Origin: Candidatus Iainarchaeum sp.
GTDB taxonomy: Archaea > Iainarchaeota > Iainarchaeia > Iainarchaeales > JAFGBZ01
Direction: 5' to 3'
Length of the DNA: 29,560 nucleotides
NCBI GenBank assembly: GCA_016218635.1
Contig: JACRDJ010000095.1
Coordinates: 1 to 29,560 of the forward strand
The notes under the pieces were generated by a model. It did not search any database. It saw only the letters and a program-made list of their open reading frames with translations, and was not told the origin of the DNA. A program made the translations under genes and the position numbers. This document shows, piece after piece, positions 7,530-21,519 of this stretch. Numbering within the stretch: position 1 is the first letter of the stretch; each line of letters begins with the position of its first letter.

Positions 7530-8078
7530 TTACTTCTTTCCGCTCTGAACCTGGTTTACGATGGCCTTGGCGCGGTTAAGCCCTTTCTTGAGGAGCTCCT
7601 CGCGCTTGGCTCCGGCACAAATGAGTTTTCCGTTCTTGAATAAGAGCAGGGTCAGCTTGGGGTCGCTTAACCGCAGAATGGCGCCCGGAAACTGTTCGGG
7701 TTCATATTCCACGTTGTCGAGCCCCATCGCCACCTTGAATAAGTCCAGATTCTGGTTCAGGTTCGCGGTGGCCACCAGATTCACGACCGAATACTCCGCG
7801 TCTTTTTGAATCTTCACGCTTTTCTGCACTTCATGAATGATCTTGCTGGCTTTCAGGATGGCTAACGAAATGTCTTTCTCGCTGGATGCCCCTGAACAGA
7901 TGATTTTGCCGTTCTTGAATAAGAGCATGGAAACCTTCGGTTCCTTTAACTTGAAAATCGCGCCCGGAAACTGTTCCGGTTCGTACTCAATCTCCGGAAT
8001 GCTGACCGCCAGATTATATAAGTCCAGTGTGGCATTCAGGCTCCCCGAAGCCACCATATTCACAATTGTATACTTCAA
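7530..8078 (-). CDS. tbp: TATA-box binding protein
   Basis: Two internal repeats, each with VN-VA, EYEPEQFPGAI and LLFKNGK-IC-GA. TTG start preceded by GAGGGGG. Confidence 0.97.
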   Translation of the reverse strand: MKYTIVNMVASGSLNATLDLYNLAVSIPEIEYEPEQFPGAIFKLKEPKVSMLLFKNGKIICSGASSEKDISLAILKASKIIHEVQKSVKIQKDAEYSVVNLVATANLNQNLDLFKVAMGLDNVEYEPEQFPGAILRLSDPKLTLLLFKNGKLICAGAKREELLKKGLNRAKAIVNQVQSGKK

Positions 8079-10298: not shown

Positions 10299-10405
10299 TT
10301 CTCCTTTCAGGGAACTTCCGGCTCCTAAAAGTCTGCCATTGAAGTAGATATTTAAAGCTTTGCAGGGCTTTTTATGTACGCTTATTCAGTGGAGTTATTG
10401 CGATT

Positions 10406-10729
10406 ATGTCCTCTAAAGCATCCAAGGGAAAACGAAAGAAATCCCGCGATTTAATGAAACGAAGGGGCCCTAAGCCTTCCGTGAACGACCTGATGGCCGT
10501 CTTCTCCGTGGGAACCCGGGTGCATATTAAGCTTAGTCCGTCCATCCATTCCGGTCTTCCAAGCCTTCGCTTTCAGGGAAAAACCGGGGAAGTGATCGGC
10601 AAACGCGGCCGAAGCTATGTGGTGGCCGTACGTTTAGGCAACCAGGCCCGTCAGCTGATTATCCCGGCTGCCCACCTGCAGGCTGCAGGTCCCGTTAAAA
10701 CCACTCCGGCCTCCATGGCCGCCGCCTGA
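10406..10729 (+). CDS. rpl21e: 50S ribosomal protein eL21 (L21e)
   Basis: G-RVHI...PSIHSGLP..RFQGKTGEVIGKRGRSY and P-HL motifs; first gene of the conserved rpl21e-rpoF-DUF655-rsmA block. Confidence 0.93.
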   Translation: MSSKASKGKRKKSRDLMKRRGPKPSVNDLMAVFSVGTRVHIKLSPSIHSGLPSLRFQGKTGEVIGKRGRSYVVAVRLGNQARQLIIPAAHLQAAGPVKTTPASMAAA

Positions 10730-10741
10730 AGGAATACAACC

Positions 10742-11080
10742 ATGTTGGGAAAAAAAATAAACTCCAAATCCATTCTCGGACTCATTGAAGTCAAGGAAAT
10801 CCTCAAAGAGCGCTCCACGGAGGAAACCCCAATGACCTATGAACAGCAGACGGCATTCGATTACACAAAAAAGTTTGTTGGACTCTCCAAATCCAAGTTC
10901 GAGAAACTGGTGGAAACCCTGAACAAAATCGAGGGCATGACTCCTGAAACGGCCGTTCGGATTGCCGACCTGCTGCCCAAAGACCTTGATGAACTCAATC
11001 TGCTTCTGGTGAAAGGCCCTTCCTTTTCCGAAGAGCAAAAAAAAGCTGTTTTGGACGAACTAACCAAAGCATTAAAATAG
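10742..11080 (+). CDS. rpoF: DNA-directed RNA polymerase subunit Rpo4 (F)
   Basis: EVKEIL, TYEQQ-A-DY-KKF and IADLLPKD..EL motifs; conserved synteny. Confidence 0.92.
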   Translation: MLGKKINSKSILGLIEVKEILKERSTEETPMTYEQQTAFDYTKKFVGLSKSKFEKLVETLNKIEGMTPETAVRIADLLPKDLDELNLLLVKGPSFSEEQKKAVLDELTKALK

Positions 11081-12916: not shown

Positions 12917-13040
12917 TCCTTTCCCTCCTTTTGGGCAGTATCCTTAACGTTTTTTTTGATAAACGTTTCGGTTTATGTAGTGGTTTGGGTTGGAGATTGG
13001 CCCGGTTCGATTCGGTGGGCAATAAAATCAATCAAAATTG

Positions 13041-18998: not shown

Positions 18999-19136
18999 AT
19001 GAAAGATCTTAAGGGCAGGTTGTTGAATCCGGGCGTCCGTTTTCATGCTCGTTCGGAAGAGTATGCTTATCGTGAAATCAAGCAAAGGCACGCAATCCGG
19101 ATTAAGGGAATTAACGAACCCGCCCGGAAGACCTGA
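18999..19136 (+). CDS. Possible 45-aa basic small protein
   Basis: Manual translation MKDLKGRLLNPGVRFHARSEEYAYREIKQRHAIRIKGINEPARKT*. It fills the gap between the MTase and the terminator. No family recognised. Confidence 0.3.
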   Translation: MKDLKGRLLNPGVRFHARSEEYAYREIKQRHAIRIKGINEPARKT

Positions 19137-19140
19137 ACCA

Positions 19141-19175
19141 AAAAAAGAAAAGGGGCCCCGGAAAGGGTTTCCGGG
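19141..19175 (-). terminator. Hairpin plus oligo-T terminator of the lipoprotein gene
   Basis: Perfect 8-bp stem CCCGGAAA (19157-19164) / TTTCCGGG (19168-19175), followed on the minus strand by GCCCC and a T-rich tail. Confidence 0.7.
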
Positions 19176-19176
19176 T

Positions 19177-19641
19177 TTACTTACAACAAAGAACCGAGTA
19201 TTCTTCAATAAACCTTGTGTCATATACCGAGCTTATAATTCCCTGTATTGTTCCACTATCCCCGGCCCTAAAGCAGGAAGAAGTTTGTCGGAGTGGATAT
19301 GTGCGGGGCGTGCGTATTGAGTCAATTAAGTTCCCTATTGAAACTATGCCTCCGGTGCAGGTTCCGTTTGTCGATGCATAGAAGTATTCATCAAACCGAT
19401 AACCTTCCAACATTGCGGTTCCCATTCCGGTAGCGGTGCACCTTTGTTGAGCGGTTTCTCCATTAAGCGCGCTGATTGAGTTACACTGCAACCCCTTCAA
19501 CTGGTCAAGGATAGTTGCCTGAACAATCTTTCCACTGGATGGCAACGCAACCGCCTCCCCCGTGCTGTTCCCTCCCTGTATTTGCGTGCACCCGCTTAAT
19601 ATCAGTAATATTCCGATTAATCCGATTCCGACCCATTTCAT
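19177..19641 (-). CDS. Small Cys-rich secreted lipoprotein; the track start is 19647, ATG 19641 preferred from RBS spacing
   Basis: MKWVGIGLIGILLILSG-C signal peptide with lipobox, then a TQIQGGNSTGEA linker. Six further Cys; ends CCK*. Confidence 0.82.
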   Translation of the reverse strand: MKWVGIGLIGILLILSGCTQIQGGNSTGEAVALPSSGKIVQATILDQLKGLQCNSISALNGETAQQRCTATGMGTAMLEGYRFDEYFYASTNGTCTGGIVSIGNLIDSIRTPRTYPLRQTSSCFRAGDSGTIQGIISSVYDTRFIEEYSVLCCK

Positions 19642-19679
19642 TTTCATTCCTCCTTCACGGGAATGAAAGTATAGTGTCT

Positions 19680-19692
19680 GGGGGGGGGGGGG
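19680..19692. repeat. G13 homopolymer (C13 on the lipoprotein sense strand) directly downstream of a TATA-like ATTAATTA
   Basis: Thirteen consecutive G at 19680-19692, the longest G/C homopolymer I noticed in the window. Confidence 0.9.
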
Positions 19693-19799
19693 TAATTAAT
19701 GTTGTGGTATAGTGGTTTGTCTGGCTGAAAGCCGGTTAGTGGCCAGTGGCCTGTTAAGTTTATATATGATTGTATACATCTGTATATTTAGGTGAATTT

Positions 19800-20030
19800 A
19801 TGGATACAACGACCTTGCGGGTGGAACGGGAACTGAAATTGGATTTGGATGAACTTAAGAGTACGAAGAATGAGAGTTATGCGGATGTGATCCGGCGCCT
19901 TGTCCGGATTGCCAAAGAGGAAAATGCTTTGTCCAAGGATGAAATCCGCCAGATTGAGGATTCACTTAAGGACCTTAAGGCCGGCCGTGTGCTCAGCCTC
20001 AAAGAGGCCGAACAGAAGTGGGGCATCTGA
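19800..20030 (+). CDS. Ribbon-helix-helix-type antitoxin; the track start is 19770, ATG 19800 preferred after GGTGA
   Basis: MDTTTLRVE..LK.DLD.LK....ESY.DVIRRLV N-terminus and acidic C-terminus ending GRV.SL.E. TATA TTTATATAT at 19759-19767 and a TGTATACA palindrome at 19771-19778. Confidence 0.75.
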   Translation: MDTTTLRVERELKLDLDELKSTKNESYADVIRRLVRIAKEENALSKDEIRQIEDSLKDLKAGRVLSLKEAEQKWGI

Positions 20031-20031
20031 A

Positions 20032-20286
20032 TTGTTTGAGTTGCTGGTCACGGAACGCTTCGCGAAGGAGCTGAAAAAGCTTCAGTCTTCGGAACGGGAG
20101 CGGATTAAGGAAAAATCAAGGGTTTCTCAGGAAAACCCGCTTCTTTTTTTTGAGCGGCTTACCGGGAATGAATTGTTCAAACTGCGGGTGGGTTCTTTCC
20201 GGGTGATTGCACTCATTCATTTTGGAAAGAAAACGATTACGGCACTCTCGGTAGGGCTCCGAAAAAATGTTTATGATAAGCTATAA
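20032..20286 (+). CDS. RelE/ParE-family toxin (TTG start)
   Basis: FELLVTERFAKELKKL, FKLRVGSFRVI and VGLRKNVY, the typical RelE pattern, 1 nt after the antitoxin stop. Confidence 0.85.
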   Translation: MFELLVTERFAKELKKLQSSERERIKEKSRVSQENPLLFFERLTGNELFKLRVGSFRVIALIHFGKKTITALSVGLRKNVYDKL

Positions 20287-20307
20287 ACTCATTTTCTTCT
20301 GCCGCAT

Positions 20308-21519
20308 TTAATTCCCGGTTTTGAGTGCCACTACGGGGTCGAGTTTGGCTGCCTGGATGGCGGGGTAGGTTCCGGCAACCATGCCGATGATGGCTGCAAA
20401 CAAGGGGGCTCCGGCAATGAGGGCGGGGTTAAGGATTAAGGGGATGGCGAACCCGTTTTGGGTGGCGATGAGGGAAATGACGGCGGTGAAAATGTAGCCC
20501 AGAATGGTTCCCAGGATTCCTCCCACCAACCCGATGGTTCCGGCTTCAATCAGGAACAGGGTGCGGATCTGGTTGTGGGTTGCTCCGATGGCTTTCATGA
20601 GTCCGATTTCGGATGTGCGTTGGATGACGCTCATGATCATGGTGTTCATGATGCCGATTCCGCCGACCACCAATGAAATGGCGGCGATTCCCACGAGCAC
20701 CAGCTGAACAATGTTCAGGACCGCAAAAGCGGTTTCCGCGATACTGTCCGCGGACATGACAGCGAAGTCTTCTTCTCCGTGCGCGCGCTTGAGCTGGGTC
20801 CTGATTTTTTCCTTGACGGATTCGTTGAGGGACTGGTCCTGGGTTTTCACCAGGATGCGGGAGGGTTGCAGGGTTCCGATGAGTTCCTTGAAGGTTTTGC
20901 TGTTAATGAATGCGGCGCTGTCATAGATTCCCCCGAACGACCCCTGGGAGCCTTTGTTGGTTCCGACGATTTTAAAGGAGTGGCCCGGCATTTCCATTTT
21001 CTGCCTGGCCGTCAGCGGGTCGGCGAACACTTTTTCCGCCACGTTTTTTCCAAGGAGGACTGCGTATTGGTCGGCGTCGCTGAGAACCCTTCCTTCATTG
21101 ATGTCCATGATTCCCACCTGTTCCAGCTGGGGCTGGTCGGAGGGATTGATTCCGACCAGGAGCAGGGTCTTGTTTTCGGATTTCACGGTGGACTGGGCGG
21201 TCGAGTAGTAGAGGGGAACGGCGAACGCCACGCCGGGGATGGCTTTATTGCGTTCGGGGTCTTTTTCCTGCAGTTTGGTGATCAGGGAGGTGCTGAATCC
21301 GCTTCCGGGAATCACGATGAGGGTATTGGATCCGATTTTTTCAAACTGCTGGTTGATGGAGGAATTCAGCCCTTCTCCGGCCGAAATGAGGGTTACGATG
21401 GCCGCGATTCCTACAATGATTCCCAGTAATGTGAGCGTGCTGCGAAGTTTCTGGCTCTTGAGGTCACGGATCGCATTCCCCAGCACTTCGGTGACGTCGG
21501 TGAACGAGTATCCGATCAT
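20308..21519 (-). CDS. MacB/FtsX-family ABC transporter permease (copy 2)
   Basis: RS.LT.LGIIVGIAAIV, a large extracellular domain, GGIGIMNTM..SV.QRT.EIGLMKAIGA and PA..AAKLDPV.AL. Confidence 0.92.
   Translation of the reverse strand: MIGYSFTDVTEVLGNAIRDLKSQKLRSTLTLLGIIVGIAAIVTLISAGEGLNSSINQQFEKIGSNTLIVIPGSGFSTSLITKLQEKDPERNKAIPGVAFAVPLYYSTAQSTVKSENKTLLLVGINPSDQPQLEQVGIMDINEGRVLSDADQYAVLLGKNVAEKVFADPLTARQKMEMPGHSFKIVGTNKGSQGSFGGIYDSAAFINSKTFKELIGTLQPSRILVKTQDQSLNESVKEKIRTQLKRAHGEEDFAVMSADSIAETAFAVLNIVQLVLVGIAAISLVVGGIGIMNTMIMSVIQRTSEIGLMKAIGATHNQIRTLFLIEAGTIGLVGGILGTILGYIFTAVISLIATQNGFAIPLILNPALIAGAPLFAAIIGMVAGTYPAIQAAKLDPVVALKTGN

Follow-up and report, generated by a model that had tools for sequence, protein, structure and literature searches.

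Directly after the putative TATA box of a gene encoding a small Cys-rich lipobox protein, a run of 13 cytosines appears to form a poly(dC)·poly(dG) spacer within the core promoter of an archaeon. We judge it about an even call that this spacer is prone to slippage and that its length varies how strongly this one paralog is expressed; start site, instability and expression effect are all predictions from the DNA sequence and from comparison with related copies. Three intact family copies seem to reuse a single cassette of promoter, 5′ UTR and signal peptide before divergent mature parts. The window, i.e., the whole 29,560 nt stretch of DNA that was analyzed, is the entire contig C57 of a 914 kb genome (169 contigs, 52% G+C), estimated to be 76% complete with 0% contamination. 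The host is a DPANN-type archaeon and belongs to an order of small genomes (0.3–1.5 Mb) with approximately 196 species-level representatives. The following features of the window are used throughout:

19680–19692, minus strand: poly-C tract (C13 in the sense direction, G13 on the plus strand), the proposed slippage-prone spacer, based on the sequence and on the genome-wide count of runs
19693–19700, minus strand: TATA-like box that immediately precedes the tract (sense ATTAATTA), with GTATAATA and GTTTAATA at the same place in the paralogs
19701–19707, minus strand: BRE-like, moderately A-rich region, sense CCACAAC, proposed from its position relative to the TATA box
19668–19672, minus strand: predicted transcription start region with T-A at 19671/19670, 22–23 nt after the TATA box, derived from the promoter geometry in PMC5316973
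19642–19668, minus strand: inverted repeat in the 5′ UTR, TTTCATTCC / GGAATGAAA, with 9 nt arms of 100% complementarity
19649–19653, minus strand: Shine-Dalgarno sequence GGAGG, 7 nt before the second ATG and identical in the C72 paralog
19177–19641, minus strand: gene of the lipobox protein (lipoprotein 2), of 154 aa when counted from its second ATG, with an in-frame ATG at 19647
19800–20286, plus strand: RHH-type antitoxin gene (19800–20030) and ParE/RelE-type toxin gene (20032–20286), assigned by domain matches
19759–19787, plus strand: the TATA box of this operon, TTTATATA (19759–19766), and an overlapping palindrome (19762–19787)

From 5′ to 3′ on the sense strand, the elements read CCACAAC-ATTAATTA-C13-AGACACTATAC-TTTCATTCC-CGTGAA-GGAGG-AATGAAA-ATG. 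A sequence-only reading made beforehand had described the promoter on the minus strand as ATTAATTA-C13-AGACACTATAC-TTTCATTCCCGTGAAGGAGGAATGAAAATG, which is correct, and the G13 tract it reported is present as 13 consecutive G on the plus strand at 19680–19692. When all 169 contigs were counted, this run turned out to be the longest G/C homopolymer of the 914 kb genome, in which G/C runs of length 7 occur 40 times, those of length 8 five times, and those of length 10 and 13 once each. By our own arithmetic, about 0.03 runs of at least 13 bases are expected under independent bases with 26% G; extrapolation of the observed decay (approx. 8-fold per base) yields an expectation below 0.001 for a 13-base run. 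Since the run is longer than either expectation allows, we regard C13 as real and not as a chance feature. Two of the seven G/C runs of at least 8 bases occupy one homologous promoter position in two paralogs; four of the remaining five lie within long open frames, and the run on contig C141 is overlapped by competing frames only. Repeats of di- to octanucleotide units were absent from the genome at the thresholds used and, consequently, there is no wider repertoire of simple-repeat loci.

Some further repeats were recorded during this survey. The second-longest G/C run is a G10 on the coding strand of contig C76 (5392–5401), which lies in the frame of a multi-pass membrane protein, encodes Gly-Gly-Gly and is a possible frameshift-prone site. 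The longest A/T runs, A13 on C31 (7133–7145) and T12 on C156 (2549–2560), are located just beyond the 3′ ends of long ORFs and are consistent with archaeal oligo-T terminators. A terminator role was also considered for the tract itself and rejected, as archaeal terminators are T runs and the A13 and T12 of this genome fit that role. In addition, a direct repeat GTATAGTG (sense CACTATAC) at 19669–19676 and 19707–19714, 38 nt apart, flanks TATA box and tract; it may be due to chance, about 0.2 such repeats being expected in 161 nt by our estimate.

The gene downstream of the tract encodes a protein with the N-terminus MKMKWVGIGLIGILLILSGC, a signal peptide with the lipobox LILSGC, a Cys-rich composition and the C-terminal residues LCCK. 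Its 154 aa length follows the gene caller of the protein collection (P0001), which uses the second ATG. No Pfam family was matched, the ESM Atlas gave no match for the lipoprotein, and an AlphaFold2 model from the three-sequence alignment was unusable (pLDDT 35.7). Neither did we find orthologs in 60 related genomes. A search of 5.8 billion proteins returned the query itself and the C72 paralog only, an HMMER scan of all 1.84 billion representatives found nothing but the paralogs, apart from spurious hits on DUF5122 propeller repeats, and a scan of metagenome and genome contig collections with the signal-peptide DNA detected no other copy of the locus. The family is thus confined to this genome, leaving no orthologous loci for comparison. 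A 911 nt Logan contig carries the C72 paralog.

Within the genome, tblastn revealed two further copies, at C72:10283–9849 and from C44:1789 onward. The C72 paralog is similar over its full length (40–44% identity, depending on the aligner), and the C44 paralog is conserved in the signal peptide only (77%). Altogether, family copies are found on C57 (two, 6.6 kb apart), C72 and C44. The second copy on C57 (lipoprotein 1, window 12916–12538) is a fourth, putatively frameshifted member with a different leader, in which TTTATC is followed by A8 (12940–12965, minus strand); the family may simply be decaying. The sense promoter of C72 reads CCAAAAAG-TATAATA-C8-GAACACAATAC-ATTCATTCC-AATGAAGGAGGAATGAAAATG and that of C44 reads AAGCAAACG-TTTAATA-CTCTCCC-AAACACAGTAT-TTTCATTCC-AATGAAGGGGAACTGAAAAATG. 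All three copies therefore have in common an A-rich stretch, then a heptamer resembling a TATA box, a spacer rich in C and a conserved block. The 130 nt downstream of the tract, which comprise 5′ UTR and signal-peptide cassette, are 82–88% identical among the three; the values are 46–56% for the 80 nt upstream and 48–65% for the gene core. At the homologous site the spacer measures 13, 8 and 7 nt (the last being the interrupted CTCTCCC), and this is the main length difference in the cassette. Examination of other family members for similar tracts, which the sequence-only reading had proposed, thus gave C8 and CTCTCCC at the same site. Its view that the tract lies on a variable surface-lipoprotein gene also holds, given the signal peptide with lipobox and the variable cores of the paralogs. 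Accordingly, the gene under control would encode a surface protein, and its lipobox class is typical of repeat-based switches. Lipoprotein lipidation machinery has been reported for DPANN archaea (PMC12462473).

A two-repeat TBP is encoded on the same contig as the tract (7530–8078, minus strand), and sigma-70 region 2 was not found in the genome; both support the archaeal host assumed beforehand. The TATAAT within the C72 box was also considered as a bacterial −10 element, a candidate rejected because the genome is archaeal. In archaeal promoters the TATA box is centered near −27 and the A-rich BRE near −33; A/T-rich sequence is found around −10, the bases at −1/+1 form a pyrimidine-purine step, and transcription starts at a set distance after the TATA box (PMC5316973). 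As a reference for TATA boxes in this genome we used tRNA promoters, since a profile from ORFs led by a Shine-Dalgarno sequence was swamped by operon-internal genes. Upstream of 30 tRNA genes we found boxes of the type TTTAATAA, TTATAAA or TTAAAAA ending 26–30 nt before the mature tRNA 5′ end, which fits the usual archaeal geometry.

Compared to this architecture of BRE, TATA box, PPE and Inr, the lipoprotein promoter has an A/T-rich 8-mer, an A-rich upstream element, a pyrimidine-purine step approximately 23 nt downstream and a 5′ UTR led by a Shine-Dalgarno sequence. ATTAATTA is the sole A/T-rich element suitably placed for the gene and matches the boxes of the tRNA promoters; CCAAAAAG (C72) and AAGCAAACG (C44) take the BRE-like position in the paralogs, and GGAGG follows approximately 39 nt downstream of ATTAATTA. 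A start at the predicted T-A (19671/19670) would place the tract at −23 to −11. The earlier statement that the tract fills much of the spacer between TATA box and start is therefore supported with 13 of about 23 bp, the start being a predicted one. Whereas the archaeal norm is A/T-rich sequence near −10, up to three C of the tract fall within −12 to −1 here.

The sequence-only reading had further likened the tract to bacterial promoter repeats. In its anatomy the tract does look like a repeat-based switch, but the bacterial mechanism cannot be transferred directly, as the archaeal start tracks the distance to the TATA box (PMC5316973). A length change would leave no −35/−10 spacing to break; since the start lies at a set distance from the TATA box, it should instead shift the start and alter the melted region. 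By our own count, a promoter with 7–8 C has a pyrimidine-purine step 23–24 nt after the TATA box, namely the C-A within the conserved TTCATTCC. With 13 C, TTCATTCC is 5 nt too distant and the predicted start becomes the T-A in CTATAC, five bases upstream. Over the predicted −12 to −1 stretch, the share of A+T thereby falls from 8/12 (67%) with the short tract to 6/12 (50%) with C13 (own count).

Based on these comparisons, we propose the following mechanism. Replication slippage probably lengthened the tract from about 7–8 C, as in the paralogs, to 13; homopolymers of about 8 or more were taken as slippage-prone, which applies to C13 and to the C8 of the C72 paralog. As archaeal RNA polymerase would start approximately 23–25 bp after the TATA box, each C gained or lost should shift the start along the conserved downstream sequence, and a longer tract should push C's into the region to be melted (−12 to −1). 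Tract length may also decide whether the RNA carries the full 5′ hairpin arm over part of the ribosome-binding site. The expected outcome would be a heritable variation, graded or on/off, in the expression of this single paralog. However, start selection by TATA distance may buffer length changes, so that expression might be little affected. A more far-reaching version, in which poly-C between TATA box and start constitutes a distinct archaeal class of switch whose length moves the start, sets the hairpin arm and so alters transcription and translation together, appears unlikely to us.

The hairpin in question would be formed by the arms at 19660–19668 and 19642–19650, and it would possibly cover the last two G of the Shine-Dalgarno sequence together with the first ATG. 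The inverted repeat is kept in the paralogs, with 8 bp in C72 and with a bulge in C44. RNA starting at 19670, which contains the whole 5′ arm, is predicted to fold at −11.1 kcal/mol, and RNA starting 6 nt further downstream, taken as a mimic of a short tract, at −4.6 kcal/mol. The predicted stability gap between the two lipoprotein leader starts is 6.5 kcal/mol; the equivalent C72 RNAs fold at −8.5 and −3.2 kcal/mol. Against shuffled controls the hairpin showed no extra stability (z = −0.34), and no leader RNA, those of C72 included, beat its controls. For this reason, the hairpin is treated only as a testable addition to the proposal.

On the other side of the intergenic region lies a putative toxin-antitoxin operon. 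Antitoxin stop and toxin start are 1 nt apart, as in a type II pair, with borderline domain matches which barely pass their cut-offs (DUF7557 for the antitoxin, 25.5 bits with a cut-off of 25; ParE_toxin for the toxin, 23.1 bits with a cut-off of 23). AGGTGA precedes the RHH gene at 19790–19795. The palindrome ATATATGATTGTATACATCTGTATAT (19762–19787) spans the region from TATA box to start of the RHH-ParE/RelE operon and is likely an autorepression operator. The tract had also been assigned to the divergent promoter region of this operon. It does share the same 152 nt intergenic region, but the tract is outside the RHH-RelE core promoter, since this operon has a separate TATA box and palindrome at a distance of 66 nt. 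The C72 paralog is likewise arranged back-to-back with a toxin-antitoxin-like pair of two genes, HicB/HicA-like by eye (C72 approx. 10370–10953; L005 2022–2605, plus strand), and variable lipoprotein genes thus appear to be paired with toxin-antitoxin modules more than once.

Related archaea were searched for comparable tracts. Runs of C11 or longer were found in 28 of the 196 genomes of the order; several of these, located at the ends of contigs, are probably artefacts. In another genus of the order (labeled g54), three internal runs share a single promoter type. These promoters precede genes of a signal-anchor protein family that has the N-terminus MAKENxxKLIIWAxVALVxG, occurs in up to nine copies per genome and varies in the remainder. 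The promoter type consists of ATTTATAAA, 2–5 nt, the C run and ATAGATAATATAG, with GGAGG and ATG about 40 nt further on. In four species, a conserved TTTATAAA precedes a run of C14, C13, C11 or C10, and an interrupted version, CCCACCATCCCTC, occurs in a fifth; the whole spacer from TATA box to the next conserved block is constant at 15–18 nt. Hence, a pure C run after a TATA box, ahead of a variable surface-protein family, seems to recur in the order and to persist across species. As a second TATA-like box lies 3′ of the tract in the A/T-rich g54 genomes, the promoter assignment is less certain there. In many g54 family copies the TATA boxes are (TA)n runs, with lengths varying from GATATATATCG to CAATATATATATATATATATATCGG (L054, L055, L050, L044, L051, L062, L063, L065), which adds a second type of simple repeat to the promoters of these archaea. 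In a crude orientation test, an A/T octamer followed after 0–3 nt by C9 was compared with the reversed pattern. No significant asymmetry was detected, neither over the 196 genomes (11 vs. approx. 10 loci) nor in this genome (11 vs. 5), and we therefore claim no general enrichment.

A search for MutS domain V drew a blank in this genome and in its two family members; in all, 29 of the 30 relatives searched gave no match. Absence from a genome that is 76% complete is no proof, but the family-level pattern points the same way. NucS/EndoMS is present (C113:220–561) and was found in 19 of 31 genomes. NucS leaves indels of 1–2 nt unrepaired, and a link has been drawn between this gap and phase variation at homopolymers in mycobacteria (PMC11551767).

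The tract may have other explanations. That the run or its length stems from poly-G read ends or homopolymer miscalls is hardly to be expected. The genome is metagenome-assembled in 169 contigs, and related assemblies do carry poly-G/C at contig ends (L016, L023, L030, L033); but terminal poly-G is absent from this assembly, the run is internal to a 29.6 kb contig, and both flanks align with the paralogous promoters in the correct order. This collinearity of TATA box and conserved 5′ UTR argues against a chimeric poly-G join, although the exact tract length could be wrong by a base or so. A very remote alternative is a start from the toxin-antitoxin TATA box read on the minus strand (CATATATAAAC), by which C13 would become part of a long 5′ UTR and act at the RNA level or through transcriptional slippage. 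TATA boxes are nearly symmetric, and CATATATAAAC is found on the lipoprotein strand some 66 nt upstream of the tract. However, an own A/T-rich box directly precedes the tract in all three paralogs, the upstream box exists in this copy only, the corresponding DNA of C72 being G+C-rich, and no Rfam family was detected in the region (19000–20400).

Slippage without any switching deserves more weight, though on the whole we doubt it: C7–8 would have grown to 13 by a neutral accident, leaving an unstable tract which may only weaken one redundant paralog. In favor of such an accident are the proposed lack of indel repair, MutS not having been found, and the proposed weak selection on a family confined to this genome, one member of which is putatively frameshifted; further, repeat loci of this sort are not more widespread in the genome, and no orientation bias was found, be it order-wide or genome-wide. 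On the other hand, the gene and its promoter elements are intact, and the genome's two longest G/C runs between genes share one promoter position in two paralogs. In addition, pure C10–14 is kept across four g54 species while its flanks diverge, although drift alone should interrupt such a run. Alternatively, the tract could be a static element whose length carries no signal, i.e., a rigid G·C stretch by the TATA box for promoter direction, TFB contact, histone exclusion or binding of a regulator. The C-rich sequence after the TATA box in all three paralogs speaks for this, as does the C-rich sequence at this place in the g54 promoter with its constant whole spacer of 15–18 nt. But paralogs otherwise about 88% identical in this region differ here by 5–6 nt in length, and one of them works with the interrupted CTCTCCC, so that a pure tract is not required; nor was a factor found, and we know of none for such a G·C tract. 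We consider a static role improbable.

Repeat-based phase variation is the textbook bacterial way of varying surface proteins, and a slippage-prone poly-C spacer would plausibly be an archaeal variant of these switches. One of the closest known systems is the Vlp variable lipoprotein system of Mycoplasma hyorhinis (Rosengarten and Wise 1990 and 1991, as listed in PMC11868660). The vlp promoter contains a poly(A) tract between −35 and −10. In both cases a conserved promoter, 5′ UTR and signal peptide precede the divergent mature regions of a lipoprotein family. Every vlp promoter has its homopolymer, poly(A) instead of poly(C), whereas a pure C run is present in two of four genes here; further, the vlp genes are clustered and have size-variable C-terminal tandem repeats, whereas the genes of this family are dispersed and free of internal repeats. 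In Neisseria, a tract of approximately 10–15 C is situated within the core promoter of opc, a gene for an outer-surface protein, and its length gives graded expression. The similarity lies in a poly-C of comparable length inside the core promoter of a surface-protein gene. In contrast to the cassette family described here, opc is a single gene, its tract alters the spacing of bacterial promoter hexamers, and the effect was verified experimentally. The poly-cytidine tract of the opc promoter is described in PMC13742949.

In Bordetella pertussis and B. bronchiseptica, the promoters of the fimbrial genes fim2, fim3, fimX and fimN carry a ‘fim box’ and a ‘C-stretch’ (PMC1891110, citing Willems et al. 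1990). The C-stretch ranges from C7 to C22 across paralogs and strains and tunes transcription, sometimes gradually (PMC1891110). Both systems comprise paralogous surface-protein genes with a common promoter module and a poly-C of differing length (here 13, 8 and 7). The Bordetella tract sets the distance from the BvgA site to −10 in a sigma-70 promoter, whereas the distance at stake here is that from TATA box to start, with TBP and TFB. Moreover, length variation and its effect on expression were demonstrated in Bordetella, whereas the present case is built on anatomy and comparison. In general, the bacterial switches alter the spacing of two fixed elements; here, a moved start and graded promoter strength are expected. 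Our literature searches retrieved no description of a homopolymer switch or spacer in an archaeal core promoter, and a review from 2025 leaves the distribution of phase variation in archaea to future work (PMC11868660).

If the spacer of a TBP/TFB promoter varied in this way, it would offer a natural experiment on how TATA distance, initiator and melted region determine where transcription starts and how strong the promoter is. Archaea with small genomes of this kind are generally regarded as living attached to host cells. Stochastic variation of a surface lipoprotein could matter for host contact or for evasion of viruses and, if expression varies as proposed, the poly-C tract would be an archaeal counterpart of bacterial phase variation by promoter repeats.
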